IMG/VR virus record: IMGVR_UViG_3300005537_000024
Span: 8,562-72,561 of that record
Strand: one strand, 5' to 3'
DNA length: 64,000 nt
DNA from: a virus
A model generated the notes under the pieces. It did no database searches, was not told where the DNA came from, and saw only the letters and a list, made by a program, of their open reading frames with translations. Position numbers and translations under genes: made by a program. This document shows, in pieces, positions 8,346 to 63,240 of this stretch (positions within the stretch are counted from its first letter, which is position 1; each line of letters begins with the position of its first letter).

Positions 8346-8655
8346 GCGGCTCAAGCTGCCGGAGCCCTAACGCCCCGGCGACGCTGGCCCCGAGCAGGAC
8401 GACGACGTCCCTGGCCGCGACGACCTCCGCCATCGCCGCCGCGGCGGCCTTTGCCTCCGCCATCGGGAAGCGATCGCCGCCGGAGGGCGAGGGGCCGGGC
8501 CAGTATGAGAGCAGGTTCGCCCGGTCGAACCGCGCCAGGAAGCTGGTCCGACCGAGCCCGCAGAGGGCGGCGAGCCGCCGGCCGGAACGACCGGACAGCG
8601 GCTCCCCGAGGACGGAGCGGCGCGAGGGCGCCTGCCCGATGATGAGGGGCTTCAT
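8197..8655 (-). CDS. uracil-DNA glycosylase superfamily protein
   Basis: IIGQAPS, GRSGRRL, N, VVVLLG, HPSG motifs; no Fe-S cysteine set. Confidence 0.75.
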   Translation of the reverse strand: MKPLIIGQAPSRRSVLGEPLSGRSGRRLAALCGLGRTSFLARFDRANLLSYWPGPSPSGGDRFPMAEAKAAAAAMAEVVAARDVVVLLGASVAGALGLRQLEPLKWSRFARDCAHVAVCPHPSGKSLWWNRPENVERAQSFWAELLRASPRP

Positions 8656-26141: not shown

Positions 26142-26525
26142 ATGAAGAAGCTCGTCCTGACCGTGCCGATCCTCGCGGCCGTCGCCCTCACGTTCTTCGC
26201 CGTAGTGGGGCCGCCAGGCGCGCGGGCGCAGAACGGCCTCCGGCAGGTCCCGCTCGGGTTCTGCCCGCTGTCCTCGATGACCTCCTCGACGGGGCTCGCG
26301 AGCTGCTCGGGGGGCATCCCGGCCGGGACGACGTACGCGGTCATCTGCGCGTACACGGCCGGCATAGTCTGGCGGGACGACGGCACGGCTCCGACCGGGA
26401 CGCCCGGGAGCGGCGGGCAGGGGCTCGGCGCGGGCTCGTGCATCCCGTACAACGGCACGTTCACGGCGATCCGCTTCATCCAGCAGGCCACCGGGGCGCT
26501 CCTCGGGGTCACATTCTACCAATAG
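26142..26525 (+). CDS. signal-peptide-bearing small beta protein (paralog of the 53308 C-terminus)
   Basis: MKKLVLTVPILAAVALTFFAVVGPPGARA|Q; 4 Cys; DDGTAPT...FIQ. Confidence 0.8.
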   Translation: MKKLVLTVPILAAVALTFFAVVGPPGARAQNGLRQVPLGFCPLSSMTSSTGLASCSGGIPAGTTYAVICAYTAGIVWRDDGTAPTGTPGSGGQGLGAGSCIPYNGTFTAIRFIQQATGALLGVTFYQ

Positions 26526-26535
26526 GTCCCCGCAC

Positions 26536-29500
26536 ATGACTCGTGGAAAACGTTGGCTGGCGCTCCTCGGCCTCCTCGGCCTCGCGGCGGTCTCGCTCGC
26601 GCAGGTGCCGAACGGCGGCCCGATGGTTCCGTCCGTCCCGTTCCCGCTCGCGGCGTCGAACGAGCTTGCGGACTGCGCGCCGTCGACCAGCTGCAGGAGC
26701 AACATCGGCCTCGATCCCTCGGTCTCGACCACGGACGGGTGGGGGGCGGCCGGCAACGCGATCTCGGCGACGTTCGTCGCCTGCTACACGAACAACGGCT
26801 CGTTCTGCGGCGGCCAGGCGTTCAACATCGTCAGCTTCCCGACGACCCAGAACGGCTCGCAGTCGACCACCGTGACGGGAACGTTGGGCGGGAGCGTGAT
26901 CACGCTTCAGTCTGGATGGTGCCGGTCGGAGATGGCCGGGTCGCCGATCTACATCCCCGGGGCCGGCCTCGGCGGGGCGCCGCTGTTCACAAAGATCGTC
27001 TCGTGCATCAGCACGCAGCCGTCGGTCGCGGCGTCGATCGAGACGCCTATGTCCGTCGTCCCGAGCGGGACGGTGACGGTCTCTTACGGGGCGCAGGCGC
27101 TCAACGGCGGAACGGGCTGGCAGCAGACGGACGTCGGGAAGGGGATCTACCTCGGCAACTCGGCGGGCGGCCAGCTCGGCGGCACGTTCACGATCACCGC
27201 GGTCACTTCTGGCCTGAATATAACGCTCAGCTCAAACGTTTCGTCGATCAACAACAGCACGGCCTCGAACTTCGTGTGGGGGACCGACGACAGCACCGCG
27301 GTTAGCAACGCCTGCGCCGCAGCCGCGGCGATCCCGTCGCGGCAGCTCCAGGTCCCGCTGAAGCACTTCGTCCCATCGCTCTCGGCGATCTGCTACAACG
27401 TCCGCCTGCGCGGCTCCGGTGCGCTCATGAGCACGGAGTTCGGCCTTCCGGTATCGAGCGGCGCGGGCGCCGGCATCGTGCAGGAGTTCGTCGTCCCGTA
27501 CGACGCGCCGCCGGCGCAGGGGCCGCGCCGCGAGGTGATCGCCGCGCGCGACCTCAACCAGTGCAGGCTCGCCGGCCCCAACCCGATCATCGTCCAGTCG
27601 GGCGACAGCCTCGAGCAGCTCGTGCCGAACGAGCTGTCCGGCCTCGGGACCTACCCGGGATCGTTCAAGGCGGCGTTCCTGCGGCAGAACCAGCGGACGC
27701 TCTGGCCGACCTTCCGCAACGCCGCGGCCGGCGGGGCGCAGTACACCAACTTCGACGGCAACCCGAACCAGGCGACCGGCGACGTCCTCACGTCGACGTC
27801 GACGCCGTGGCTCACGCAGATCGCGGCCGTCAACCCGTGCCTCGTGATCAACGGCATGGGGAACAACGACGGCGCTGGGCTCTCGATCCCGGCCCTCGTC
27901 GACAGCTACGTGAAGATGACGACGCCGGGCGCGGTCTTCGCGACGCCGCCGGACTTCATCTACGTAACGCACCACCCCTACAGCCGCATCAACAATAGCA
28001 ACATCGACGCGTGGGAAGGTGACGAGTACGCCTCCGGCTACATCTGCTCGTTCGCCCACGTCATGGGGCGTCCGTGCATAGACGGCGCGCGCGAGGGCGA
28101 GAAGCACCTATTCGGGATCGACCCCGGCGCGATGCGGATGACCCGCCGGTACGACGTCCCCTACAACACCAACAACATGGCCCTGCCGTACTCGCTCTCC
28201 GGGTCCGTCTACGGCCACTCGGCGCAGTTCTTCAAGAGCGGGCAGAACGGCGCGACGTTCTGGGCGAACTTCACTGGCAACGGCGGCGTGACGGACCCGC
28301 GCGGCAACTTCATCGCGTTCCGGGTCGGCAAGAACTCCGACAACGTCGTGTGGCTGTTCTACAACGGGACGAACATCGGCTACGAGTGCGACCCGTCGGC
28401 GGGCCTTCCCGGCCTCGGCTGCGACGGCCCGAACGGCCAGCCCCCCGTCGTCCCTTCGCTCCTGAGCAACGTCACGGTCGCCAACACGGGCGGCGGGGGC
28501 GTCGCCCAGGTCTCGACCTCGACCGCGGTCTTGCAGCCTTGCACGGTCGGCGGGACGGTCGCGATCCCGGGCGCAGGCGCGGTGCTGACGCCGCCCGGTT
28601 ATACCAGCTACACGGCGCCGCTCGTCACGACGGTCACGGCCTGCAATTCGACCTCCCTCATGACCCTCGCGGTCGCCGCGACGACGACCTACGCGGCGCA
28701 GTCCGGCTTCGTGATGTTCGGGAACCCGGTCACCTACTCCAACGTGACCGACGCCTCGAACTGCACGAACGAGCCCTTCGGCTTCGAGGTCAACTTCGAC
28801 ACGCTCAGGGTCTGGTTCTGCTCGACGAACCAGATCGTCTACGAAGGCCCGGTGATGCGGCCGCGGGGGCTCTACCAGCCGTCGATCTTCACCGGCGGCA
28901 ACCGGCCCTCGTTTACGGTCGGGGTCGACATTAACGGCGGCACGACGTTCCAGACGCTTCGCCCCAACCCGAGCCAGATCACGTTCAACGACGCCGAGGT
29001 TAGCGGCCCCGCGAGCAACGGCCCTCTGTCGAACCAGACCTACTCCGGCCCCGACGGCGGCGACGGCAACAACCACAACACGATGCGGTTCGGGACGCGG
29101 GTCATCGCGCCCCTGTTCGACGCGCAGGACCTTTCGATCGCGCCCGCGTATGTCGGGCCGGCGAACAAGCCGGCGCTCGGCCTCGGAATCCCGCAGGCGC
29201 GGACGATGGCGCTGTTCGGGGATAGCATTTTCCAGGGCAACGACACGATCAACCTCAGCAACTCGTCGTGCTCGTCTGGCAACTGCGCCGCCACCCTCGA
29301 CGGCGGCTACGGGACGTTCGCTAGCGCGTATTCCGGCTACAGGGTGCTGCGGGTCCCGAACACGGGCAACTGCTCGCTAAACGGGTCGACCTCAGCGATC
29401 ATGGTCAACTACGTGAGCTGCGTCCTGGCGCTCAGGCCCGACGTGGTCATGATGGAGATCGGCGGGAACGACGCGGCCGGGAGCACGGCCTGCGCCACGG

Positions 29501-30471
29501 TCACGGCCACCAACCGGCAGATCTACAAGGCGTTCATGCAGGCTGGGATCGCCGTGATCAAGTACGGCGTCTACCCGCGCGGCGGCGGGAGCGCGTTCAC
29601 GACCGCGCAGGCGAACTTGGCCCAGTGCTACAATCTGGAGGACAAGCGGTTCGCCGAGGGGGTCGGGAACAACGGGTTCTACTTCGTCGACCTCGACCCG
29701 CTGTACGTCTCCCCCGGCGGCGGGACGACGTGGACGATCAACACGAACTGCCTCAAGGACCTCTTCCACCCCGGGACCTCCTGCGCCTCGGCGGGCGGGT
29801 ACGCGGGCGCGCAGATCATCAACCAACTTTTCCCGCCCGGCCGCCAGCCGATCTTCACGAACGCGGATGTCTACGACGGGACGAATAACCCGGGCGGCAA
29901 CCTCCTCCCGAACGGGATCTTGACCGGCTCGGGCGGGTCGGCGCCGACTAGCGGGTGCACGGGTTCGACCGTCAACAATTCGAGCCTGACCGGCAACAAC
30001 CTCATCGGAACGACCTGCGCGGGGTCGACGCAGACGCTCGCCGACGGCCGGGGGGCGCAGATCATCACGGTCGGCGGGACGGGCTCCGGCTCGAACGGTT
30101 TCCTGTCCTGGGCCATGAACTCTGCGACCCCGTCGAGCGTCGCGATCGGCGACGTGCTCGAGGCCGAGTGCTGGCTAAACCTCGGCGCCAATAGCAACAT
30201 CGCCGCCGTCGACGTGCAGATGCAGACGATCGAAAGCTCGACCCTTTTCGTTCAGCACGGCGGGTCGGTCTCGACGCTCACGCTGCCGATGCCGTCGGCG
30301 GGCTACGCGACCGGGACGTGGACGCCGTTCCGGACGCCGCGGCGCACGATGACTGCGATCCCCACGGTCGCCGGCATCAACATCGGCTTCAGCTACGTCT
30401 CTCCCCTCGCCACCACGGTTTCCGGCACGCTCGGCATCACGAGCTGCTCGCTCAGAAAGGTCCTGTCGTGA
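26536..30471 (+). CDS. large signal-peptide-bearing spike/fibre-like protein with two SGNH/GDSL esterase domains
   Basis: MTRGKRWLALLGLLGLAAVSLA|Q; GTDDSTAV spike-like motif; GDSL..GNND..DGNNH and GDSI..GGND..DLFHP; 30 Cys. Confidence 0.85.
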   Translation: MTRGKRWLALLGLLGLAAVSLAQVPNGGPMVPSVPFPLAASNELADCAPSTSCRSNIGLDPSVSTTDGWGAAGNAISATFVACYTNNGSFCGGQAFNIVSFPTTQNGSQSTTVTGTLGGSVITLQSGWCRSEMAGSPIYIPGAGLGGAPLFTKIVSCISTQPSVAASIETPMSVVPSGTVTVSYGAQALNGGTGWQQTDVGKGIYLGNSAGGQLGGTFTITAVTSGLNITLSSNVSSINNSTASNFVWGTDDSTAVSNACAAAAAIPSRQLQVPLKHFVPSLSAICYNVRLRGSGALMSTEFGLPVSSGAGAGIVQEFVVPYDAPPAQGPRREVIAARDLNQCRLAGPNPIIVQSGDSLEQLVPNELSGLGTYPGSFKAAFLRQNQRTLWPTFRNAAAGGAQYTNFDGNPNQATGDVLTSTSTPWLTQIAAVNPCLVINGMGNNDGAGLSIPALVDSYVKMTTPGAVFATPPDFIYVTHHPYSRINNSNIDAWEGDEYASGYICSFAHVMGRPCIDGAREGEKHLFGIDPGAMRMTRRYDVPYNTNNMALPYSLSGSVYGHSAQFFKSGQNGATFWANFTGNGGVTDPRGNFIAFRVGKNSDNVVWLFYNGTNIGYECDPSAGLPGLGCDGPNGQPPVVPSLLSNVTVANTGGGGVAQVSTSTAVLQPCTVGGTVAIPGAGAVLTPPGYTSYTAPLVTTVTACNSTSLMTLAVAATTTYAAQSGFVMFGNPVTYSNVTDASNCTNEPFGFEVNFDTLRVWFCSTNQIVYEGPVMRPRGLYQPSIFTGGNRPSFTVGVDINGGTTFQTLRPNPSQITFNDAEVSGPASNGPLSNQTYSGPDGGDGNNHNTMRFGTRVIAPLFDAQDLSIAPAYVGPANKPALGLGIPQARTMALFGDSIFQGNDTINLSNSSCSSGNCAATLDGGYGTFASAYSGYRVLRVPNTGNCSLNGSTSAIMVNYVSCVLALRPDVVMMEIGGNDAAGSTACATVTATNRQIYKAFMQAGIAVIKYGVYPRGGGSAFTTAQANLAQCYNLEDKRFAEGVGNNGFYFVDLDPLYVSPGGGTTWTINTNCLKDLFHPGTSCASAGGYAGAQIINQLFPPGRQPIFTNADVYDGTNNPGGNLLPNGILTGSGGSAPTSGCTGSTVNNSSLTGNNLIGTTCAGSTQTLADGRGAQIITVGGTGSGSNGFLSWAMNSATPSSVAIGDVLEAECWLNLGANSNIAAVDVQMQTIESSTLFVQHGGSVSTLTLPMPSAGYATGTWTPFRTPRRTMTAIPTVAGINIGFSYVSPLATTVSGTLGITSCSLRKVLS

Positions 30472-31025
30472 AGCGACACCTCACCGCCCTCCTCGTCGGG
30501 ACGGCTCTCGCGCTCGCGCCGGCGATCGCCGCGGCGCAGAACATGGGGGCGTCGGGCTACTACGGCGGCCCCCCCGGCGCCGGCCAGCAGCTCGGGGCGC
30601 AGAGCAACGCGCAGGCGGTCGCCGGGAACGTCGGCGAGCCGCTCTCGAACTCGCTCGCCTCCGGCTCGGCGATCACGTACTCGACCGGGACGGCGGCGAA
30701 CATCACGAACATCACGAGCCTGACGCCCGGCCGCTGGGAGGTGTGGGGGACCTGCGCCTTCACGTTCGGCGGGACGACAGTGGTAACGCAGGAGAGCTGC
30801 GGGATCAGCACGACGTCGGCGACGCAGCCCGGCCTCGCGTCGGGGGCGGAGGGGCAGCTGGCCACGGGCGCGGGGTTCACGGGAGGCGCCGACAACACCG
30901 TGTTCAGCGGCGTCACGCCGATCGCCGTCTCCGCGCCGACGGTCGTCTACCTCGTCGGGACGTGCGCGTTCACGACGTCGACGTGCAAGGGCTACGGGCA
31001 GATCCAGGCGGTGCGGAGGCCGTGA
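30468..31025 (+). CDS. signal-peptide-bearing fibre-tip-like beta protein
   Basis: MKRHLTALLVGTALALAPAIAAA|Q; GNVGE...LTPG.W.V.G...VYLV...I.AVR; 4 Cys. Confidence 0.8.
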   Translation: MKRHLTALLVGTALALAPAIAAAQNMGASGYYGGPPGAGQQLGAQSNAQAVAGNVGEPLSNSLASGSAITYSTGTAANITNITSLTPGRWEVWGTCAFTFGGTTVVTQESCGISTTSATQPGLASGAEGQLATGAGFTGGADNTVFSGVTPIAVSAPTVVYLVGTCAFTTSTCKGYGQIQAVRRP

Positions 31026-32353
31026 CCAAGCGGCTCGCCCTCGCGCTCGCCCTCCTCCTCGCCGCGCCCGCAGGCGCGCAGACGATCGGGGACCTCGTCG
31101 CCGTCGGCCCTTCTCAGCTCCAGACGAGCGACGCGGCGTCGGCCTGCGCCGCGCAGGGCTATTGCAACGCCCCGCTCGGGCTCAACTTCACCGGCTCGAT
31201 CACCTACGGGAGCGGGGCTGGTTCTCCGAGCGGCCCCGCGAACGCGCTCATATGGGCCGGCGGGAACGGCGCGTACGTGCCCGCGACCGGCGTCTGCGCG
31301 CTGACGACCGGCCAGCTCTGCGCCTACGTGAGCTTCGCGTTCCTCGACCAGGTCGACGCGTCGGCGAACTTCAACGGCCTCGCCGCCTTCGTGATCCAGG
31401 ACGTCGTGCAGGCGCCGGCCAAGGGGGGGCGCGGCGTCTTCAACACCTACTTCACCTACCAGGGTTCGGCCGATACGAACCAGCAGTACGGCACCGGCTC
31501 CTCGTACGTGAAGGCGATCGCCAACAACGGCGGTACGAGCCTGGCCGCGGCCGGTGCTCTGTTCGGCGGCAACCCGTTCGTCGACTTTCAGCCGGGCGCG
31601 ACGTTCTGGGCGCAGGGGATCGGCATCGAGACGGACATGCGCATCATGAACGGCGCGCAGGTCCGTGAGATGATCTTCCACCAATACGTGCACGAGTTCA
31701 ACTACACGCAGCCCCCGCAGTTCGCGGTCGGGCTTTCGGTCAACGCGCAGACGGCCTGGAAGGGGACCGGCTTCATAAGCGGGACGACGTTCGACGCGGT
31801 CACGTCGACCTTCGGGCAGCTGCTCGTCGGGCACACCCTCCAGGGGACGGGGATCGCGCCCGGCACGGTCATAACGGCCTACCAGGGCGGCTCGGGGGGG
31901 ACCGGGACCTACACGGTCAACATCAACCAGAACGTCGGGAACATCAATTCGACGGTCGCGACGTGGGGCAACCCGGTCGGCCTCGACGCGATGCTGCAAG
32001 ACGGCTCGTTCGCCGGCGTCTCCGAGATCAGCGCGACCGGCGGCGTCTTCCGCTGCTTCAACACGCTGAACTCGAACCCGAGCGGCGGGGCCGGCGGCTG
32101 CGGGACGATCGGCTACGGCCTCGACTTCGGCAACTACATCGCCGTGACCGGCAACCTCCTAAACGGCCCGCAGGGCAACGGGCGGATCGACGGGAACTTC
32201 AACGTCGTCGCCGCCACGCTGACCCTGAACAGCTCCGCCTCGTTCACGGCCACGAAGACGAACTGCGGCAACCTCGCGAGCTCGACGGGATGCCTGATCC
32301 TGAAGGACAACAACGGCAATTCGGTCTACGCGCCGCTCTACGGCACCCTCTGA
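31022..32353 (+). CDS. signal-peptide-bearing fibre/spike-like protein
   Basis: MTKRLALALALLLAAPAGA|Q; Gly/Thr/Asn-rich beta content; 8 Cys in adjacent pairs; GGTGTY module. Confidence 0.8.
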   Translation: MTKRLALALALLLAAPAGAQTIGDLVAVGPSQLQTSDAASACAAQGYCNAPLGLNFTGSITYGSGAGSPSGPANALIWAGGNGAYVPATGVCALTTGQLCAYVSFAFLDQVDASANFNGLAAFVIQDVVQAPAKGGRGVFNTYFTYQGSADTNQQYGTGSSYVKAIANNGGTSLAAAGALFGGNPFVDFQPGATFWAQGIGIETDMRIMNGAQVREMIFHQYVHEFNYTQPPQFAVGLSVNAQTAWKGTGFISGTTFDAVTSTFGQLLVGHTLQGTGIAPGTVITAYQGGSGGTGTYTVNINQNVGNINSTVATWGNPVGLDAMLQDGSFAGVSEISATGGVFRCFNTLNSNPSGGAGGCGTIGYGLDFGNYIAVTGNLLNGPQGNGRIDGNFNVVAATLTLNSSASFTATKTNCGNLASSTGCLILKDNNGNSVYAPLYGTL

Positions 32354-51497: not shown

Positions 51498-52193
51498 ATG
51501 GGCGACACGGGGGCGGGCCAGTACGACCCGTCGGACGCGAACTCGAGCTTCACGGTAACGTCGTTCATCGTCCGGCAGCTCCTGTCGCTGATCGACACGA
51601 TGAAAGTCGTGCAGGTCACCGCGGTGCACCCCGGGTCCGGGACGCCGCCGATCGCCGGGACGGTCGACGTGCAGGTCCTCGTCGCGCAGCTCGACGGCGC
51701 CGGCAACGCGGTCCCGGGGGGGATCGTCTACGGCCTCCCGTACTTCCGCCTCGGCGGGGGGAAATGGGGCGTCGTCTGCGACCCGGCGGTCGACGACATC
51801 GGCCTCGCGATCTGCGCGGACCGGGACATCTCCAGCCTCAAGGGGGCGGTCGCGGCCGGCAAGTCGCCGATGGTCAACCCCGGCTCATACCGGTCCTACG
51901 ACGTCGCCGACGGCGTCTTCCTCGGCGGGTGCCTCAACGGGGAGCCGGAGGCGTGGCTGTGGCTCAAGGCGGACGGGACCCTCAACCTGACCGACGCCAA
52001 GGGAAACGTGCTACAGACATCGGCGAGCGGATTCGCGTTGACGGGGAACGTCGCGGTCACCGGGTCGATCACGGCGACCGGCGACGTGACGGCGGGCCAG
52101 GGAGGGGCTGACAGCGTGACCCTTCAGAACCACCTCCACGGCGGCGTGACCGGAGGCGGCAGCACCACGCTCAAGCCGGTGGCGGGGACATGA
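51498..52193 (+). CDS. baseplate central spike (Gp138-like)
   Basis: VDVQ.LV.QLDG.GN, LPYFRL.GG....V.DP.V.DIG.A..ADRDIS; C-terminal metal-binding HLHGGV. Confidence 0.9.
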   Translation: MGDTGAGQYDPSDANSSFTVTSFIVRQLLSLIDTMKVVQVTAVHPGSGTPPIAGTVDVQVLVAQLDGAGNAVPGGIVYGLPYFRLGGGKWGVVCDPAVDDIGLAICADRDISSLKGAVAAGKSPMVNPGSYRSYDVADGVFLGGCLNGEPEAWLWLKADGTLNLTDAKGNVLQTSASGFALTGNVAVTGSITATGDVTAGQGGADSVTLQNHLHGGVTGGGSTTLKPVAGT

Positions 52194-52840
52194 CGGCGAA
52201 CTGCCTGGGCTGCTTCTTCCACCGGGGCTCCAGCGGGTCGCTGACCTGCAACCGCGACGCCCCGAGCTCGCTCGCGGCGGCGATCCCGCCGAACCGGGCG
52301 GCGTGGCTCCCGGTGAACGACACGGACTGGTGCGGGGAGTTCGCCGTGACGGACCCGGGCGTCTACACGCCTGGGACGCCGCAGCCGGGCGGGGGGCAGT
52401 GCTCGACGTGCTTCTTCGCGCACGGGTCGCCGGGCAGCTACGTGTGCCGCTGGAACGCCCCGACGGCTTTCGCCGACTTCGGCGGCCTGCCGCACGCGGG
52501 CTGGCTCCCGGTCGACGACGCGGCGTGGTGCGGCCAGTACGCGGCGAGCGACCCGGACATCTACGGGAGCCGGCGGGGGCCGCCGGGGCCGTCTGGCATC
52601 CTAAGCTCCGGCACGTTCGCGTGGCCCGCCGCTGCGAACGCCGTCATAAGCGACGCCGCCGTCACGCCGACCTGCTTCATAGCCCTTCGGCCGCTCGACG
52701 CCGGCGGGGCGGCGATGATGGCGACGGCGATCGAGAACCCGTACGAGCTGAGCCGGATCGCGGGGACCAGCATCACCCTGACGACGACGTCCGGCTACCA
52801 GAACCCGGCGAACTTCGCCTACGCGCTGCTGGCGACGTGA
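52190..52840 (+). CDS. protein with a tandem duplicated Cys-rich domain
   Basis: Two copies of C..CFF..GS.GS..C...AP...WLPV.D..WCG. Confidence 0.7.
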   Translation: MTANCLGCFFHRGSSGSLTCNRDAPSSLAAAIPPNRAAWLPVNDTDWCGEFAVTDPGVYTPGTPQPGGGQCSTCFFAHGSPGSYVCRWNAPTAFADFGGLPHAGWLPVDDAAWCGQYAASDPDIYGSRRGPPGPSGILSSGTFAWPAAANAVISDAAVTPTCFIALRPLDAGGAAMMATAIENPYELSRIAGTSITLTTTSGYQNPANFAYALLAT

Positions 52841-52849
52841 GGGTGGCGC

Positions 52850-53311
52850 ATGGCCGCGACGCTCCAGCTAAACCCGCAGACCTGGGACCTCACGCTCGAC
52901 GAGGCGGGCAACATCGCCGTCCTCGCCGACCCGGACTCGCTCGCCCAGGACGCCGCGAGCGCGATCAAGACGTTCCTCGGAGAGTGCTACTGGGATACGA
53001 CGGTAGGCGTGAACTACGCCGCGATCCTCGGGCAGTCGCCGCCGACGATCGCGCTCCTCAAGGCGGCCTTCGTCGACGCGGCGCTCACGGTCCCCGGGGT
53101 CGCCGCGGCGCAGGTTTTCATCTCGTCGCTCTCCGACCGCACGGTATCCGGCCAGGTCCAGGTCGTGAGCTCCTCGACCGGGCAGGTTTCCGCAGCTAAC
53201 TTCGCGACCAACCTCGCGAGGGTGGTCAACCCCGCGGCCCCGCTGATTCTGGTCTCGGAATCCGGAGATCCCCTAAGCTCGGAGGGAGGAGAGATCCTCA
53301 CGTCAGGATGA
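52850..53311 (+). CDS. baseplate wedge protein (gp25/gp46-like)
   Basis: TL.L.P.TWDL.LD..GNIA, LAQD.ASAI..F.GE...DT..GV.Y. Confidence 0.85.
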   Translation: MAATLQLNPQTWDLTLDEAGNIAVLADPDSLAQDAASAIKTFLGECYWDTTVGVNYAAILGQSPPTIALLKAAFVDAALTVPGVAAAQVFISSLSDRTVSGQVQVVSSSTGQVSAANFATNLARVVNPAAPLILVSESGDPLSSEGGEILTSG

Positions 53312-53802
53312 AACGAACAGCAGCCGTCGTCCTCGCGCTCTCGCTCCTGCTCGCCGTCTACGCGTTCGCGCAGCCGACGACGCAGTCGTTCCCGAACTAC
53401 GTGCGGAGCCTCCCGCAGGCGTCCCTCCCGCTCACGGGGACCGAGATCCTCTACATGATCCAGAACGGGGAATCGGTGCAGGCGGCCTCGCTCCAGCTCG
53501 GGGGGAGCGGCGGGTCCGGGGCGCCGTACCAGTTCACGCCGTCGACCGGGGCCGACCAGCACAACCTCGCCGTCGTCTCGGCCACGCCGCTCACGGTCCC
53601 GGGCGACGCGCTGTTCGCCCAGGTGTGCGTGTCGGGCGCCGCGGTGAACTGGACGTGGACGGGGACGGCGCCGACCGCCCTGGTGGGCCAGCCGCTCGCC
53701 GCCGGGGCGTGCGAGTTCTTCTCGGGGAGGGCGGTACTCACGGCGCTGCAGTTCATCCAGAAGGTGCCGACGGCCGTCCTCGACGTGACGTACTCGAAGT
53801 GA
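53308..53802 (+). CDS. signal-peptide-bearing small beta protein
   Basis: MKRTAAVVLALSLLLAVYAFA|Q; LP.A..PLTG.E motif; C-terminus paralogous to 26142. Confidence 0.8.
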   Translation: MKRTAAVVLALSLLLAVYAFAQPTTQSFPNYVRSLPQASLPLTGTEILYMIQNGESVQAASLQLGGSGGSGAPYQFTPSTGADQHNLAVVSATPLTVPGDALFAQVCVSGAAVNWTWTGTAPTALVGQPLAAGACEFFSGRAVLTALQFIQKVPTAVLDVTYSK

Positions 53803-53812
53803 GGCGCGGCTG

Positions 53813-55687
53813 ATGGCGTCGGGAACCGCGGTCCCCCCCCCGATATTCGGACCCAACGGGTGGCAGGTGCCGCAGGCCCCGGCGATCCTCGCCGGCGTGC
53901 AGGCGGACATCACGGCCGCCTTCGGCACGACGCTCAACTTCAACTTCAATACCCCGCAGGGCCAGCTCGCCTCGAGCGAGGCGGCGATCATCAACAACGC
54001 CTATGGGGCGCTCGTCTTCCAGTTCAACCAGCTCGACCCGTCCTACGCGATCGGGCGCATGCAGGACGCCATCGCGCGCATCTACTTCCTCGACCGCGAC
54101 CCGGCGGAGCCGACGACGCTCCAGGTCTCGTGCACGGGGGCGGGCGCGTTCATCCCGGACTCGACGAACCCGAACGTCACGCCGGCGACGATCGTCGACG
54201 GGAACAACAACCTGTACACGTGCATCGGCGCCGGGAGCCTGCCGCCCGGCGGGGGGAGCGTGACGCTCGCCTTCGCGTGCACGGTCCCCGGCCCGGTCCC
54301 GGTCCCCTCGGGGGCCGGCGTCCAGATCTATCAGGCGATCCCGGGGTGGGACTCGGTCTCGGTCGTCTCGGGCGTCGAGGGCGTCGACGAGGAGGGCCGC
54401 TTCGCGCTCGAGCAGAGGCGGCAGGACTCGGTCGCCGGCAACAGCTTCGGCCCGGTCGGCGCGATCATCGGCGCCGTCGCGAACGTGCCGGGCGTGATCG
54501 ACTACTACGGCTACAACAACAATACGGCCAACCCGGTCACGGTCGGCGGCGTTACGATCGCGGCGTACTCGATCTACATCGCGGTTGCGGGCGGGTCGCC
54601 CACGGCGGTCGCGCAGGCGATCCTCTCGAAGAAGGGCGCGGGCGCGCCGATGACCGGCAACACGACGGTCACGGTCTACGACTCGAACCCCCTCTACGCG
54701 GCGCCGATCCCGTACTCGATCACGTACGAGATCCCGCCGGCCTTCCAGGTCCTCTACAAGGTGACGATCGCGAACGGCCCGCTCGTGCCGAACAACGCGA
54801 CGCAGCTCGTCCAGGCGGCGCTCCTCGCGGCCTTCGTCGGGAACGCGCTCTCGGCGTCGTTCACGGGGCAGGTCACCGGGACCTCGCTGAACGTGACGGC
54901 GGTGACGTCGGGGACGATCGTCGTCGGTCAGACCATATCGGACGCGACGAACGCGCTCGCGCCGAACACCACGATCACGGGGCTCGGGACCGGCAACGGC
55001 GGCCTCGGGACCTACATGGTCAGCGTGTCGCAGAACGTCCCCTCGGAGGCCATGACGGCGTCGCCGCCGAGCGGGGTGGCGGTCGTGCCGCGCGCGCGGA
55101 TCGCGACCACGCTCTATGCGACGCAGTACGCGGCGCCGGTGAGCCTCCTGGGCCCGTGGGCGCTGGTCGCGGCGCTCGGGATCGGCTCGGCCAACACGCC
55201 GGACGCGGTGATCGTCGGGAACATCTCCGGGAGCACGCTCACGGTCGCGTCGGTCACGTCGGGGTCGGTGGCGATCGGCCAGAACCTCGTCGACCCGCTC
55301 GGCCTAACCGTGACGGGGACCTACATCACGGCGGGGAGCGGGACGACCTGGACGGTCAACAACCCGCAGACGGTCGGCGGCGCGACCTTTACCGGGACGG
55401 GGAGCGGCACGAACCTCACGGCGAGCGGGGTGACCGGCTCGATCGGCGTCGGCGACGTAATCACGGGGACCGGGGTCCCGGCGAACACGACGATCGTCTC
55501 GCAGACCTCCGGCCCCGCGGGCGGCAACGGCGTCTACGTCACGAACAACGCCACTACGTCGTCGGGCGCCTCGCTGCTGGCGAACTCGACGTTTACGTGC
55601 TCCTCGGCCGACCAGTCGAAGGTTATCGTGAACGCGAACCAGGTGCCGCAGCTCTCGGCGTCCAACATCACGGTCGCGTTCGTATGA
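53813..55687 (+). CDS. baseplate J-like protein with three inserted beta modules
   Basis: TPQGQLA.S, DP..A.GRMQDAI.RIYF..R, IYQ.IPGWD.V, E.R...E.RR..SVA, SIY.AV.GG. Confidence 0.92.
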   Translation: MASGTAVPPPIFGPNGWQVPQAPAILAGVQADITAAFGTTLNFNFNTPQGQLASSEAAIINNAYGALVFQFNQLDPSYAIGRMQDAIARIYFLDRDPAEPTTLQVSCTGAGAFIPDSTNPNVTPATIVDGNNNLYTCIGAGSLPPGGGSVTLAFACTVPGPVPVPSGAGVQIYQAIPGWDSVSVVSGVEGVDEEGRFALEQRRQDSVAGNSFGPVGAIIGAVANVPGVIDYYGYNNNTANPVTVGGVTIAAYSIYIAVAGGSPTAVAQAILSKKGAGAPMTGNTTVTVYDSNPLYAAPIPYSITYEIPPAFQVLYKVTIANGPLVPNNATQLVQAALLAAFVGNALSASFTGQVTGTSLNVTAVTSGTIVVGQTISDATNALAPNTTITGLGTGNGGLGTYMVSVSQNVPSEAMTASPPSGVAVVPRARIATTLYATQYAAPVSLLGPWALVAALGIGSANTPDAVIVGNISGSTLTVASVTSGSVAIGQNLVDPLGLTVTGTYITAGSGTTWTVNNPQTVGGATFTGTGSGTNLTASGVTGSIGVGDVITGTGVPANTTIVSQTSGPAGGNGVYVTNNATTSSGASLLANSTFTCSSADQSKVIVNANQVPQLSASNITVAFV

Positions 55688-55779: not shown

Positions 55780-56340
55780 ATGGCTTCAAAAGCAGGTATC
55801 ACCGCCGAATATGCGCGGCAAATTTTCGACTACAACGAAAAAAACGGAGAACTAATCTGGCGAACCAGAACGCCGGATATGTTCGTCGCTACCGAGTTTA
55901 GATCAGCGGAATGGCTTTGCCGAAAGTGGAACTCTACGTGGGCCGGAAAGTCGGCGGGCGGATTAAGGAAAGGGTATCTTAGGCTTCGACTGAAGGGACG
56001 AAAATACACGGCAGCGCGCATCATCTGGTTGATGATCCACGGTCAATGGCCCAAAACGCAGGTAGATCATCGGGACGGGAAACGCGCTCGAAACACTCTA
56101 GCGAACCTGCGTGAAGCGACGAATGCTCAGAACTGTCAAAATAGAAAAAAGAGAAGCGACAACCGTAGCGGATATACGGGCGTCCACCGGGACAAGTCAA
56201 AATGGAGAGCCGAAATTTGTATCAAAGGAAAGGATATTTATCTCGGCTCGTTTGAATCGAAGGACGAAGCCCGGGAGGTCTACCTAGAGGCCAAAGCTCA
56301 ATATCACTCTTTCCAACCCAAGCCTCGTGCAGACGCCTAA
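55780..56340 (+). CDS. HNH-AP2 homing endonuclease
   Basis: FDYN...GEL.W, R.IW....G.WP..QVDHRDG....N..ANLR.AT..QN..N, SGY.GV, YLG.F...EA; low GC. Confidence 0.9.
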   Translation: MASKAGITAEYARQIFDYNEKNGELIWRTRTPDMFVATEFRSAEWLCRKWNSTWAGKSAGGLRKGYLRLRLKGRKYTAARIIWLMIHGQWPKTQVDHRDGKRARNTLANLREATNAQNCQNRKKRSDNRSGYTGVHRDKSKWRAEICIKGKDIYLGSFESKDEAREVYLEAKAQYHSFQPKPRADA

Positions 56341-57006
56341 ATGTCTGGGCCAAATTATCCGCGCTACGCAACGGCCTCGGCGCCTGGCCAGAACGCGATC
56401 GGTACGTTCGCCGTAGGGATAAGCCCCCTCGGAGACGTTCCGCCATTCGACCAATGGAAGACCGTAATAAGTCAATACGCCAATTCCCCGATCCTCGACG
56501 GGATCATCAACGCGTTCAACGCCGCGATGGACCCGACCGAGGTCCTTGACGACTACTACGACATGATGATGAACGTCGCGACGGCCGTGGGGTACGGCCT
56601 CGACGTGTGGGGCCGCATCGTCGGCGTCAAGCGGACGCTCTCGATCCCGGGCAGCGTGACTTTCTTCGGTTTCGAGGAGGCGGGGAGCTGGACGGGGTTC
56701 GGCCAGGGCGGGTTCTTCACGGGGTCGGGGGCGACGACGAACTTCGTTCTCTCCGACTCCGACTTCCGCAAGCTCGTGTACGCGAAGGCGGCGGGGAACA
56801 TCAGCGACGGGTCGATCCCGGGGGTCAACCAGATACTCCTGACGCTTTTCCCGGGCCGGGGCATCTGCTATGTGCAGGACAACCAAAACATGAGCCTGGC
56901 CTACGTCTTCAAGTTCCCGCTGACGACCGTCGAACTCGCGATCCTCGGGCAGAGCAACGTGCTCCCGAACCCCGCCGGCGTCGCGGTCAGCATCGTCCAC
57001 CAGTGA
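56341..57006 (+). CDS. baseplate protein (DUF2612-type)
   Basis: T.ISQYANSP.L, TA.GYGLDVWGRIVGV.R, LSD..FR.L..AKA..NI, LP.PAGV. Confidence 0.9.
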   Translation: MSGPNYPRYATASAPGQNAIGTFAVGISPLGDVPPFDQWKTVISQYANSPILDGIINAFNAAMDPTEVLDDYYDMMMNVATAVGYGLDVWGRIVGVKRTLSIPGSVTFFGFEEAGSWTGFGQGGFFTGSGATTNFVLSDSDFRKLVYAKAAGNISDGSIPGVNQILLTLFPGRGICYVQDNQNMSLAYVFKFPLTTVELAILGQSNVLPNPAGVAVSIVHQ

Positions 57007-57013
57007 GGGCGCC

Positions 57014-58291
57014 ATGAGGAAACTGTTCTGGGCCGCTGTCATCCTGCCGCTGATGGTCTTCGCCGCGGCGGCGATGCAGCAATCGCAGGTCCCGCCGAAG
57101 TTCCCGGTCCCGTGGGGCAACTCGGCGACCGCGACCTACCTCCGCTCGATCCCGGTCCCGTCGCAGATCGGTATCCAGAACTGCGCGGCGTCGCTCACCG
57201 ACGGGTTCCCGCCGCTCACGTTCGTCCCGGCGACCGCCGGAGGGTGCCCGCCGTTCGGCGCGGACTTCAACGGCATCCTCAAGCAGATCACGCAGTGGTC
57301 GCAGTGGCAGGGCGCGGGGGCGTCGCCGACCTACGACTCGTCGTTCTCGACCTCGATCGGCGGCTACCCGAGCGGGACCGTCCTCGCGAACGCCTCGACG
57401 GCGGGGTGCTTCTGGGTCTCGACGGTCGACAACAACTCGAGCGACCCGGACACGGGCGGCGCGAACTGGTCTTCCTCGTGCCCGGGGGGCGGCGTCGGCG
57501 GCACGTCGACCGGCTCGGCCAACGCGCAGGTGGTCGCGGCGACGCCGTTCGTGAGGCGGGTCGGGAGCACGGTGACGTACGTCGCCGGGTTCTCGAACTC
57601 TGGTCCGCTCCAGGTCAACGTCAACGGCGCCGGCCTCGTCAACGTCTTCCGGCGCTCGCAGCTCGGGGCGACCATGTCGGTCGGGGGCGAGACGTTCACC
57701 GGCCAGAACGTGACGATCACGTGGGACGGGACGCGCTGGCAGTGCACGTCGTGCGCCTTCGTCCGGGTCGGCGAGGTCGTCGACATGGCGACGACGACGC
57801 TCCCCGCGGGCCACCTCGTCGTGGACGGGAGCTGCGTCTCGCAGTCCACGTACGCCGACCTTTTCTCGCTCACGGGGACCGCGTTCGGGTCCTGTTCGGC
57901 CGGCAACTTCGCCCTCCCCGACCTCCGCGGCCGGATGACGGCGGGGTACGACGGGCAGGGCACGCAGGGCGCGGCCAACAGGTTGACGAGCGGCGGCTCG
58001 TCGTGCGCGGCGACGACGATCGGCGTGGGGTGCGGGGCGCAGAACGCGACGCTCGCCCAGAACCAGCTCCCCAACGTCTCGCCCACCTTCAGCGGCAACA
58101 GCTCCGGGCAGGCGTTCTACACGGGGACCCCCGGCCAGTGCGTCCGCGCCGACGCGTGCAGCTACCAGATCGCCACCGCGTCGGTGGCCACGCCGTCCGG
58201 GACGGTCAGCTCGATCAACGGAGGCGTGACGCAGCAGACGACGCCGGTCGTGCCGCCCATCCAAACCGTGACGAAAGTCATCAGGTTCTGA
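57014..58291 (+). CDS. tail fibre protein with collar domain, preceded by a signal peptide
   Basis: MRKLFWAAVILPLMVFAAAA|MQQSQVPPKFPVPWG; GFPPLT, PP.G.DFNGIL, IGGYP.G, W.STVDNN..DPD; collar DGS.VS..TYA.LF...F.LPDLRGR; 12 Cys. Confidence 0.9.
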   Translation: MRKLFWAAVILPLMVFAAAAMQQSQVPPKFPVPWGNSATATYLRSIPVPSQIGIQNCAASLTDGFPPLTFVPATAGGCPPFGADFNGILKQITQWSQWQGAGASPTYDSSFSTSIGGYPSGTVLANASTAGCFWVSTVDNNSSDPDTGGANWSSSCPGGGVGGTSTGSANAQVVAATPFVRRVGSTVTYVAGFSNSGPLQVNVNGAGLVNVFRRSQLGATMSVGGETFTGQNVTITWDGTRWQCTSCAFVRVGEVVDMATTTLPAGHLVVDGSCVSQSTYADLFSLTGTAFGSCSAGNFALPDLRGRMTAGYDGQGTQGAANRLTSGGSSCAATTIGVGCGAQNATLAQNQLPNVSPTFSGNSSGQAFYTGTPGQCVRADACSYQIATASVATPSGTVSSINGGVTQQTTPVVPPIQTVTKVIRF

Positions 58292-58293
58292 AT

Positions 58294-59436
58294 ATGAGGA
58301 CGCTCCGAGCCACCCTCCTCGCCGCGGCCCTCGCGCTCCCCTGCGCCGAGGCGTCCGCGCAGTCGAACCCCGGATGGTCGTACGGCTACGTCCCGACGGC
58401 CTCGCAGTGGAACGCGCAGTGGGCGTCGAAGCAAGACTTCCTCGGGGCGTCGCCGCTCCTAACGACAGGCGGGATCATCAACGGGCCGGTCACGTTCAAC
58501 GGGTTCCCGGTGACGTTCTCGAGCGCCCCACTCATAATCTCCGGCAACCTCTCGCAGTCTGCGTGGACGACTAGCGGCATCCGCATCCAGGGCGTCGTCG
58601 GGACGATGACGGATACGACCTCGGCGGGGACCGTCGCCGCGGCCTACACGGACGTGCTCGGCGGGAACACGATCGCGGCGTCGAACGTCGTCACGTTCAC
58701 GAACTACGTCAGCAGCTACTACCGGCAACCGGTCGCCGGGGCGAACGTGACCTTCACGCACGGGTGGGCGCTCGGGGCGGACAGCGTGTTCGTGGGGGCG
58801 GGGACCGCGACCGTCCCGCCGATCGGCCTCACCGCGGGGACGAACCTCACGACGGCGGTCGCCGGCGCGCACGAGTACGACGGGAACGCGTTCTACCAGA
58901 CGCCGGGCGCCTCGAACCGGGGGGTGACCGCGAACTACCACTTCGAGCGCCTGACCTCGAACTACACGCTCGGCAACGTCAACACGCCGCAGAAGGCGTT
59001 CAACGGGACGGCGAGCGGGCAGATCACGGTCCCGCCCGCGACCGGCTACCGGTTCAAGCTCAAGTACCTGATCACGAACACGGGGACGACGAGCCACCAG
59101 TGGCAGGTCCTCCTCGGCGGGACGGCGACGCTAACTTCCGGGACGATGTCGTGCAACGCGGTCTCGAGCACGAGCTCGGCGGTAGCGACGCCCGGGCTCG
59201 GCTACACTACGACGCTCGGGACGGCCTTCACGGTGACCGCCGCGAGCACGTCGGCGACGGAGAACGCGACGATCGACTGCGACGGGACCGTCAACGTCAA
59301 CGCCTCGGGCACGCTCATCCCCGAGGTCCAACTGACCGCGGCGACCGGGACCGCGGCGACGATGCTCGCCGGCAGCTTCTTCGAGATGTGGGCGGTCGGG
59401 TCGAACGCCGTCGTGAGCGTGGGAAACTGGAACTAA
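58294..59436 (+). CDS. signal-peptide-bearing second fibre-like protein
   Basis: MRTLRATLLAAALALPCAEASA|Q; W.YG.VPT..QWN..W..KQD; GT.L.T...GA.EYDG..FY. Confidence 0.8.
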   Translation: MRTLRATLLAAALALPCAEASAQSNPGWSYGYVPTASQWNAQWASKQDFLGASPLLTTGGIINGPVTFNGFPVTFSSAPLIISGNLSQSAWTTSGIRIQGVVGTMTDTTSAGTVAAAYTDVLGGNTIAASNVVTFTNYVSSYYRQPVAGANVTFTHGWALGADSVFVGAGTATVPPIGLTAGTNLTTAVAGAHEYDGNAFYQTPGASNRGVTANYHFERLTSNYTLGNVNTPQKAFNGTASGQITVPPATGYRFKLKYLITNTGTTSHQWQVLLGGTATLTSGTMSCNAVSSTSSAVATPGLGYTTTLGTAFTVTAASTSATENATIDCDGTVNVNASGTLIPEVQLTAATGTAATMLAGSFFEMWAVGSNAVVSVGNWN

Positions 59437-59438
59437 AC

Positions 59439-60266
59439 ATGCAGCACCCCTTCCCGGTTCTCGCTTCCGAATACGAGTCCTCGCTCGCCCGCATGGTCAT
59501 CACCGACGTCGCGCGCGTCGAGGCGGCGGTGAAGGAGATCCTCCCCGGGAAAGAACGGTACAAGGCCGTCGAGGCCGCGACCAAGATCCCGGCAGCGTTC
59601 ACCGGCGCGCTCGACTACCGGGAGGACGACTGCAACCCTCACGACGGCCTCGGCCAGGGCGACCCGTGGTCCCACGTCTCGACCCACGTCCCGGCCGGCA
59701 AGGGGCCGTTCTCCTCGTGGTACGCCGCGGCGATCTTCTACCTGCGCTACGACCGGGTCGACGTGCTGAGCGTGCCGGCGTGGACGTTGCCGTACGCGTG
59801 CTGGAAGGGGGAGGCGTGGAACGGGTTCGGGCCGCGGAGCAACGGCGCGCACTCGGGATACCTGTGGGGCTGCACGAGCATCTACACAGGTGGAGGCTAC
59901 CCGAGGGACCACAAGTGGAGCTCGACGTGGACGGACCGCCGGCCCGGGATCGTCCCGATCATCAGGCGGCTCGCCGCGGTCGACGCGGACTTCTCCTTCA
60001 CCGCCGCCCCCGCCGCCGGGACCATGCCGCCGTCGATGCCGATCGCCCAGCTCCCGCCCGCCGGCGTCGACAACGCGCTCTGGGTCCAGCAGAGCCTCAA
60101 CCGGCTCGACATCGGCCCGCGGCTCGTCGAGGACGGCAATTACGGCCGGCGCACCCGGACGGCGGTGGCGAACTTCCAGGAGACGGAGGGGCTCGACGTG
60201 GACGGCCTCGCCGGGCCGGAGACGGTCGCGGCGATCGAGCGACACCTCGCCGTGTTGCATAAATAG
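59439..60266 (+). CDS. endolysin (lysozyme-like) with C-terminal peptidoglycan-binding domain
   Basis: RY..VE..T.IP, YRE, LGQGDP, VP.G.GPF.SW, E.WNG.G, YLW; WVQ.SLN.L...DG.YG..T..AV..FQ...GL.VDG.AG..T. Confidence 0.88.
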   Translation: MQHPFPVLASEYESSLARMVITDVARVEAAVKEILPGKERYKAVEAATKIPAAFTGALDYREDDCNPHDGLGQGDPWSHVSTHVPAGKGPFSSWYAAAIFYLRYDRVDVLSVPAWTLPYACWKGEAWNGFGPRSNGAHSGYLWGCTSIYTGGGYPRDHKWSSTWTDRRPGIVPIIRRLAAVDADFSFTAAPAAGTMPPSMPIAQLPPAGVDNALWVQQSLNRLDIGPRLVEDGNYGRRTRTAVANFQETEGLDVDGLAGPETVAAIERHLAVLHK

Positions 60267-61348: not shown

Positions 61349-61687
61349 GTGCGGCGGACCCTCGCCCTCGCCGCCCTAGCGGCGAGCCTGCTCTCCGGTT
61401 GCTCGTCGACCGGGGTCGCCGGCATCACCCCCGCAGTGCTCACGAACGCGATCGTCGCGGCATGCGGGATCACGGTCGACGCGCTGACGGTGGCGAACCT
61501 GATCGCCGCCGGAAACCAGACGCTCACGAGCGCGCAGGTCATCGCGACGCAGGTGTGCGACGCGTGGAAGGCGGCGAGCGCCCCGGTAGCCTCGACCCGC
61601 TTCGGCGTCGTGCTGCGGCAAGTCGGCCCGATCACGGTCTACATCGGCGGCGTCCCGGTCAACGTGACCGGCGCGAAGCCGCTCTGA
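61349..61687 (+). CDS. lipoprotein
   Basis: MRRTLALAALAASLLSG|C lipobox. Confidence 0.75.
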   Translation: MRRTLALAALAASLLSGCSSTGVAGITPAVLTNAIVAACGITVDALTVANLIAAGNQTLTSAQVIATQVCDAWKAASAPVASTRFGVVLRQVGPITVYIGGVPVNVTGAKPL

Positions 61688-62544: not shown

Positions 62545-63240
62545 GTGAGGAAGACGCTCTACGCCGCGACGACGATCCTGTCGTGGACGTTCGCGACCCT
62601 GGCCATCGCCGCCGCGTTCTCCGTCTTCCCCACGTGCCACGCGCAGACGTTCCGCGAGGCGACGCCTGGGCCGGTGGCCGTGGGCGCGAGCCCGGTCGGG
62701 ACCGTCGCGCAGGCTCCTCCAGCGGTCGCGCCTTCTCCTCCGACCACCGGGCCGACGACGCAGAACGTCGTCACGACGACGGGGCCGGTAAGTTCCGACA
62801 CGACGATCTCGGTCGGCACGCTCGCGGGCCAGGCGTTCCTGTGGATGGTGACCGCCTTCGGCGGGGTCCTCGGGACGGCCCTCACGGCGCTGATCCTCAA
62901 GCTGATCCAGGCGGCCGGGATCAAGGCGACGGACGCGCTCCGCGCCCGGCTCCAGGAGATGGTCGTCAACGGGCTGAACCTCGCCGCGCAGGAGGCGGCG
63001 CACCACCTCGAGGGTAAGCTCCCCGTGCAGGTGAGCGCCGACATCAAGGCGCGGGCTACGGCGTACGTCGTGGCGCACGGCGCCGACACGATCAAGGCGC
63101 TCGGCCTCGACCCGAGCAGCCCGCTCGCGGCGCAGGCGATCCAGGCCCACATCGAGACGGCGATCGCCGACCCGGCGACGCCGACGCCCGCCGTCCTCGG
63201 AGGCCCGCCGCCGGCGAGCCCGCCGATCGCCCCGGCCTAG
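62545..63240 (+). CDS. membrane protein, holin-like
   Basis: Signal-like N-terminus, Pro/Thr linker, TM, LQ..V.NG...A.AYV..H..D.I..LG. Confidence 0.6.
   Translation: MRKTLYAATTILSWTFATLAIAAAFSVFPTCHAQTFREATPGPVAVGASPVGTVAQAPPAVAPSPPTTGPTTQNVVTTTGPVSSDTTISVGTLAGQAFLWMVTAFGGVLGTALTALILKLIQAAGIKATDALRARLQEMVVNGLNLAAQEAAHHLEGKLPVQVSADIKARATAYVVAHGADTIKALGLDPSSPLAAQAIQAHIETAIADPATPTPAVLGGPPPASPPIAPA

Follow-up and report, generated by a model that had tools for sequence, protein, structure and literature searches.

The cytoplasm is assumed to be the place where the fibres of tailed phages fold and are put together. The locus described here, a tail fibre gene that appears to open with a signal peptide, raises the question of whether such a protein might be exported and, if so, whether it would still become part of the virion. 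The window, by which we mean the whole stretch of 64,000 nucleotides that was analysed, runs from base 8562 to base 72561 of one contig of 72,561 bp, a myovirus genome of ~72.5 kb with a GC content of 68.6%. The contig codes for a portal, head protease, tail sheath, tube protein and tape-measure protein together with a baseplate hub, a gpV-like spike and baseplate W and J proteins, a gene set that identifies it as the genome of a contractile-tailed phage. The fibre ORF (57014..58291, plus strand, 425 aa) exists as first described and lies directly 3' of a DUF2612 gene in the baseplate operon, the arrangement that characterizes DUF2612-associated fibres. The initial annotation placed it in the standard fibre position after baseplate J and DUF2612, and this is what we find, with an HNH-AP2 endonuclease insert (55780-56340) between the J gene (53813-55687) and DUF2612. 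This HNH_3 and AP2 homing-endonuclease ORF lies in a low-GC island. The features of the locus are collected in the table.

Table. Features of the signal-bearing fibre locus, in positions of the window.
Feature	Position	Strand	Basis or remark
DUF2612 baseplate wedge gene	56341..57006	+	Pfam PF11041, E 4e-52; directly upstream of fibre
GAGGG Shine-Dalgarno	57005..57009	+	4 bases before ATG 57014; overlaps DUF2612 stop; anti-SD -7.0 kcal/mol
Signal peptide, residues 1-20 (MRK / LFWAAVILPLMVF / AAAA)	57014..57073	+	predicted SPase I cut after A20
Baseplate-anchor domain, residues 21-160, from ancestral Met	57074..57493	+	homology from residue 21, Cys covariation, constraint
Beta-rich shaft, residues 161-252, Cys pair 244/247	57494..57769	+	AF2 pLDDT ~90, beta strands
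Phage tail collar domain, residues 253-308, Cys pair 274/294	57770..57937	+	Pfam PF07484, E 8.2e-15
C-terminal region, residues 309-425 and stop codon; Cys 331/340 and 376/382	57938..58291	+	low AF2 confidence
Second fibre-like gene, own signal peptide (MRTLRATLLAAALALPCAEASA / QSNPGW...)	58294..59436	+	signal-bearing in 42/50 loci

The similarity of this protein to known fibres begins at residue 21. Its match to PHROG 12796 (tail fiber, E 3.9e-23) aligns residues 21-403 with profile positions 1-378, and when 50,697 cultured phage records were searched by tblastn, 221 matched, the best 26 of which begin at residue 21 or 23, end at residue 147 or 152 and share 41-53% identity (e.g. Bcep1, PE067 and Orisa01, over residues 21-152), none of them covering at least 80% of the query. 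The 20 residues that precede this point have the anatomy expected of a Sec signal peptide cut by signal peptidase I, namely a positively charged n-region (MRK), a 13-residue hydrophobic core within the usual range of ~10-15 and the tetrapeptide AAAA, which places alanine at positions -3 and -1 relative to Met21. The predicted cut site thus coincides exactly with the point at which similarity to unsignalled fibres sets in. Eighteen of the 20 presequence codons carry G or C at the third base, like the coding sequence of the phage genome, and an AlphaFold2 model shows a lone helix at residues 2-22. Here and throughout, signal peptides were called by hydropathy and an AxA heuristic rather than by SignalP.

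The protein otherwise resembles the DUF2612-associated fibres of Bcep781-like and PB1-like myoviruses, a family that corresponds to PHROG 12796 and includes those of Burkholderia phages Bcep1 and BcepNY3, Pseudomonas phage Orisa01 and Acetobacter phage phiAO1 as well as the Pa193 fibre (PDB 9b45), in its N-terminal anchor, its position after J and DUF2612, its mosaic C-terminus and its structural matches to fibres. By contrast, those fibres begin with the anchor methionine, whose codon overlaps the end of the DUF2612 gene, and have neither a presequence, of which the present protein has 20 residues, nor any of the four anchor cysteines described below. We read the Orisa01 and phiAO1 genes directly and found that in both the start codon is that of the anchor and overlaps the end of a DUF2612-like gene. 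The phiAO1 tblastn match does begin at residue 13, which gave the appearance of a signal peptide, but we rejected it because the annotated phiAO1 gene starts at the equivalent of residue 21 and the extension reads through into the upstream gene. Among the 50,697 cultured phage records, the tblastn search, of which the best 26 of 221 matches were listed, returned no signal-bearing form of the fibre.

The presequence recurs in database homologs of the protein. We surveyed the best 120 of 891 homologs (E <= 0.001) and found a presequence of 17-39 residues (median 21), with an AxA site exactly at the junction, in 118 of them; the other two (P0035 and P0053) are fragments that start inside the anchor. 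Across these 118 proteins, position -3 is A in 107, S in 4, V in 4, G in 2 and T in 1, position -1 is A in 99, G in 14, S in 3 and P in 2 (A, G or S in 116/118), position -2 varies, and the n-region has a net charge of at least +1 in 116. The residue at +1 is most often M (49) or L (46), otherwise E (10), A (10) or I (3), and never Cys. Neither a lipobox nor a twin-arginine motif was seen in these 118 sequences, whose n-regions are mostly MKK, MRK or MKR. Adherence to the -3/-1 rule, the charge of the n-region and the lack of a cysteine at +1 are hallmarks of substrates of signal peptidase I. The signal peptide is therefore a trait of the family, shared by a large clade, and not an oddity of a single gene. 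This agrees with the initial annotation in that a signal peptide has been grafted directly onto the ancestral start methionine of a canonical fibre. The annotation had also called this the clearest case of its kind, which suggests a singular event and does not suit a trait seen in 118 of 120 homologs and in a neighbouring second fibre family that behaves alike.

The mature protein contains twelve cysteines, at residues 57, 78, 132, 156, 244, 247, 274, 294, 331, 340, 376 and 382, and the presequence contains none. Their arrangement in six neighbouring pairs, including pairs within the anchor and collar domains, had been noted from the single sequence and is reinforced by the homologs, in which the pairs covary. 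In the 120 proteins, both members of the pair 132/156 are present in 104, neither in 8 and one alone in 0, while for 57/78 both are present in 102, neither in 12 and only Cys78 in 5, and these five, which appear single by alignment column, have a partner cysteine two residues away. Among the 33 homologs with a collar-type C-terminus, the pair 244/247 is complete in 29 and missing from 4, and 274/294 is complete in 32 and missing from 1, again with no single-cysteine member; the pair 376/382 occurs in the present protein alone. Altogether four pairs have no single-cysteine member, and the mature cysteine count is even in 33/33 collar-type homologs. Even numbers and pairs that are gained and lost together are what disulfides would produce, and we propose that C57-C78 and C132-C156 form disulfides in the anchor.

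We then compared fibres with and without a signal at 121 non-duplicate loci, 41 of them signal-bearing and 80 unsignalled. One or both anchor cysteine pairs are present in 36/41 signal-bearing fibres (both in 15, the first only in 17, the second only in 4 and neither in 5) and in 0/80 unsignalled ones. Likewise, the cysteine count is even in 33/36 complete mature signal-bearing proteins (median 6) compared to 37/73 unsignalled ones (median 2). With no unsignalled homolog sharing an anchor pair, the supposition that the cysteine set is tied to the signal stands. Additionally, the collar domains of two unsignalled cultured phages, Klebsiella phage KA2-1 and Pseudomonas phage Persinger, have A, G, V and G in place of C274, C294, C331 and C340. 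The contrast of 36/41 with 0/80 is inflated by shared descent, as the loci offer few phylogenetically independent contrasts. A minimum of 6 changes in the signal trait is required on a tree built from 118 anchors, only 2 of them forced by well-supported branches, and the corresponding independent contrasts between signal and cysteine pairs number 2 on well-supported branches and 6 on all, so few events that a sign test gives p ~0.5. One locus, L083 (fibre from 10013), is the only unsignalled member of the main clade, in which it stands beside 33 signal-bearing rows, and it has also lost both anchor pairs, G and V replacing the first and the second being gone. The second fibre downstream of L083 retains its signal peptide.

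Several lines of evidence bear on whether the signal-bearing protein still functions as a fibre. DUF2612 lies directly upstream in 35/41 signal-bearing and 75/80 unsignalled loci, and the other signal-bearing loci comprise two with an insert between DUF2612 and the fibre and four without any baseplate genes. Within the family alignment, 25 of the 26 invariant columns fall between residues 27 and 152. The divergence of the anchor relative to that of DUF2612 is 0.91 for signal-bearing and 0.89 for unsignalled fibres, and pairs with 40-60% DUF2612 identity have anchor identities of 0.604 and 0.579, respectively. These similar values indicate no relaxation of constraint on the anchor compared to unsignalled fibres, which makes it probable that the mature fibre retains the ability to dock on the baseplate. 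The same constraint bears indirectly on whether the protein is a trimeric virion component, as members of the PHROG 12796 family are. The C-termini are mosaic (Collar, PF21722, PF13884, PF12708 and PF21882), as is the case for receptor-binding proteins. The AlphaFold2 model has a mean pLDDT of 69.4, with high values over residues 100-310 and low values in the anchor region, and Foldseek matched it to the fibre of cyanophage A-1(L), the Pa193 fibre and the receptor-binding domain of T4 gp12 (1ocy; probability 1.00, 34% identity over 68 columns), the last in line with the PF07484 collar; the family profile, when used to search PDB sequences, returned nothing at E <= 0.01. The initial annotation considered this the conversion of a structural protein into a secreted one. 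Taken to mean that the protein is no longer structural, that claim fits poorly with the constraint kept on the anchor, the mosaic C-termini and the fact that this is the sole fibre gene in the canonical slot.

The gene that follows the fibre shows the same architecture, in that its signal peptide directly precedes a conserved N-terminal motif, QSxPGWxYGxVPTxxQWN, and the unsignalled relatives of this second family have the C-termini of tail spikes or tail fibres. We examined 50 non-duplicate loci of the second family with a heuristic that overlooks at least one evident signal peptide (L024) and counted 42 as signal-bearing. A signal on the first fibre is accompanied by one on the second in all 23 cases, 19 loci have a signal on the second alone, 8 on neither and 0 show the reverse pattern. 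The predicted signals are thus nested, the first fibre carrying one only where the second does. Four further loci, L003-L006, are small islands on one Alphaproteobacteria MAG contig that contain a primase (Toprim/DUF7146 with AAA_25, or DUF3987), a large terminase and a signal-bearing fibre gene. They have no DUF2612 and no baseplate genes and resemble phage satellites with a fibre of their own.

Other genes in the window are also predicted to encode exported or cysteine-rich products. A 164-aa ORF (53308-53802) with a signal peptide and two cysteines lies between baseplate W and J, its start overlapping the W stop; we considered it as a conserved partner of the fibre and rejected it, as tblastn found 0 relatives in 143 loci. 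Between the gpV-like spike and baseplate W, ORF 52190-52840 encodes a cysteine-rich protein with two similar repeats (C..CFF..GS.GS..C...AP) that has no Pfam or PHROG match. The head-gene region contains two further signal-bearing proteins (26142-26525 and 26536-30471), the latter a 1311-aa product with a GDSL lipase/acylhydrolase domain at its C-terminus. Downstream of the endolysin-like gene are a lipoprotein-like ORF (61349-61687, LSGC lipobox), an OMP beta-barrel protein (PF13505, 61716-62516) and another signal-bearing ORF (62545-63240).

Based on these observations, we propose that the gene would produce a baseplate-anchored tail fibre in precursor form, preceded by a Sec signal peptide that can be cleaved. 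Judging by its sequence, the precursor would cross the inner membrane and be cut by signal peptidase I after Ala20, which would leave a mature protein that starts at the same residue, Met21, as the cytoplasmic fibres of the family, and its twelve cysteines would be oxidised in the periplasm to six local disulfides. The conservation described above suggests that the mature anchor would dock on the DUF2612/J baseplate and that the protein would serve as a receptor-binding fibre of the virion. More speculatively, because tails would be built in the cytoplasm, fibres and tails could meet only after a holin opens the inner membrane, which would make attachment the last step of assembly and place it in the lysing cell. 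The endolysin-like protein (59439-60266, PG_binding_1) has neither a signal peptide nor a SAR segment, which implies a hole-forming holin. The likely benefit would be a covalently stabilised fibre beyond the reach of the reducing cytoplasm. Attachment after holin triggering is plausible given that the long fibres of T4 attach to completed particles, in vitro too, and that canonical holins produce very large membrane lesions. Weighing against the proposal, we know of no tailed phage that adds a periplasmic protein to its tail, the interval between holin triggering and dilution is short, and 5/41 signal-bearing fibres have neither anchor cysteine pair. On balance, we rate the chances that this is an exported, disulfide-bonded virion fibre which joins tails after the holin has breached the inner membrane, an attachment step that we infer, as slightly better than even. 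A bolder version, which we put forward tentatively and expect may well be wrong, is that a large clade comprising soil and alphaproteobacterial myoviruses has come to finish tail morphogenesis outside the cytoplasm, with both fibres exported by Sec, folded oxidatively in the periplasm and, once the holin joins the two compartments at lysis, attached in trans to finished but fibreless virions, such that fibres would become a diffusible 'public good' of the lysing cell. This would explain why the satellite-like islands L003-L006 have, as their only structural genes, those for a large terminase and a signal-bearing fibre, since they could re-target helper virions by secreting a fibre of their own.

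Two alternatives concern where translation starts. One holds that it begins only at Met21 and that the upstream 60 bases are an untranslated spacer, in keeping with the unsignalled relatives, which begin at the equivalent of Met21. The other holds that ATG 57014 yields an exported form while Met21 (ATG 57074) yields a cytoplasmic virion fibre, a possibility that the initial annotation had raised. In the present phage, the DUF2612 stop is a TGA at 57004-57006, and the annotation was right that the upstream ATG is preceded by a GAGGG Shine-Dalgarno and the internal ATG is not: the bases before the latter, GCCGCGGCGGCG, lack a purine-rich Shine-Dalgarno, and the anti-SD duplex energies are -7.0 and -4.4 kcal/mol, respectively. 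We extended the comparison to 137 anchor-encoding stretches drawn from the window, two cultured phages and the fetched loci, 43 of which have a signal-like in-frame extension. At the junction, these 43 have ATG (11), CTG (9), TTG (6), ATC (6), GAG (3), CTC (2), CTA (2), CTT (2), ATA (1) or GCC (1), meaning that in 26/43 loci the ancestral start has become a codon not normally used for initiation and the precursor is the sole possible product. The median anti-SD energy is -1.7 kcal/mol before the junction compared to -5.35 before the 80 unsignalled starts and -5.1 before the presequence start, a noisy value given that the presequence start chosen is sometimes too long. Together with the third-position GC typical of coding sequence and the fact that a mere spacer would need n-h-c anatomy, an in-frame start and a Shine-Dalgarno in 118/120 homologs, these data already contradict the start artefact at the level of the family, and we give it next to no credence. 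Two isoforms gain some room from the ATG at the junction in this phage and 11 of the 43 loci, the TTG in 6 more and the weak -4.4 kcal/mol duplex that could form before the junction, but non-start codons and a lost Shine-Dalgarno at the junction show that dual initiation is not the family's mechanism. Moreover, a structural need for a hydrophobic first residue explains M, L or I at +1 equally well, and a cytoplasmic isoform with 12 cysteines selected as pairs makes little sense. We therefore regard the two-isoform explanation as improbable, with a minor Met21 isoform as a minor possibility in the present phage only, which keeps its ATG.

The remaining alternatives accept translation of the presequence and differ in what becomes of the product. 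It could act uncleaved, as a signal-anchor or SAR-like tether keeping the fibre on the inner membrane up to the moment of depolarisation, and the N-terminal segment is indeed predicted as a single helix; phages do use SAR domains for endolysins. SAR domains, though, are weakly hydrophobic, rich in Gly, Ala and Ser, and have no cleavage site, whereas the core here is strongly hydrophobic (L, F, W, V, I) and the -3/-1 AxA rule, a signature of cleavage, is kept in nearly all 118 homologs, which makes a tether quite improbable. A more serious contender, albeit one we consider unlikely, is that the exported protein is not part of the virion and acts in the periplasm or on the cell surface as an adhesin or by occupying the receptor of the phage, whether for superinfection exclusion or for shielding progeny from debris, and that the virion binds its receptor with a different protein. 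The phage encodes many other predicted exported proteins, among them the OMP beta-barrel and the lipoprotein, other ORFs have partial tail-fibre PHROG matches (e.g. 30743-32353), stand-alone signal-bearing copies occur without baseplate genes at L003-L006, and the 19 loci in which the second fibre alone is exported and the first is cytoplasmic indicate that export might serve a non-virion purpose. On the other hand, this is the only gene in the canonical slot after DUF2612, and its most conserved part is the anchor, which shows no relaxation and which a decoy would not need. In addition, a periplasmic protein would need to be secreted once more before it could contact receptors on the outer surface, and there is no similarity to known exclusion proteins, PHROG matches all being to tail proteins or proteins of unknown function.

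The exported virion fibre that we favour can be set beside other phage proteins that leave the cytoplasm. The pIII protein of filamentous phages binds the receptor, has a Sec signal peptide and acquires periplasmic disulfides before it joins the virion, features that we predict here from sequence. By contrast, pIII belongs to another virus realm and has a different fold, and its virions are assembled at the membrane and extruded, whereas here the tail is contractile and cytoplasmic. Receptor-blocking exclusion proteins of the T5 Llp type are small exported lipoproteins whose site of action is the infected cell's envelope. They too are phage-encoded and exported but, unlike the present protein, they are unrelated to fibres, while ours is a fibre with an intact anchor.

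Our search of the literature, made at the level of abstracts, found no description of a signal peptide on a tail fibre, and passages of PMC3556154 concern lysis proteins and are irrelevant to signal-bearing fibres. The observation is robust and unexpected; the mechanism that we attach to it is a proposal. A prophage locus in a cultivable Bradyrhizobium (L013, B. oropedii Pear76) offers a concrete system in which it can be tested. Because signal peptides serve to tell 'morons' from structural genes, genome annotation is affected, and those who engineer or express such fibres may find that folding needs export and DsbA. Finally, the proposed route would explain how phages come to use disulfide-stabilised receptor-binding proteins and, if true, assembling part of the virion by way of the periplasm would add a new step to the textbook pathway.
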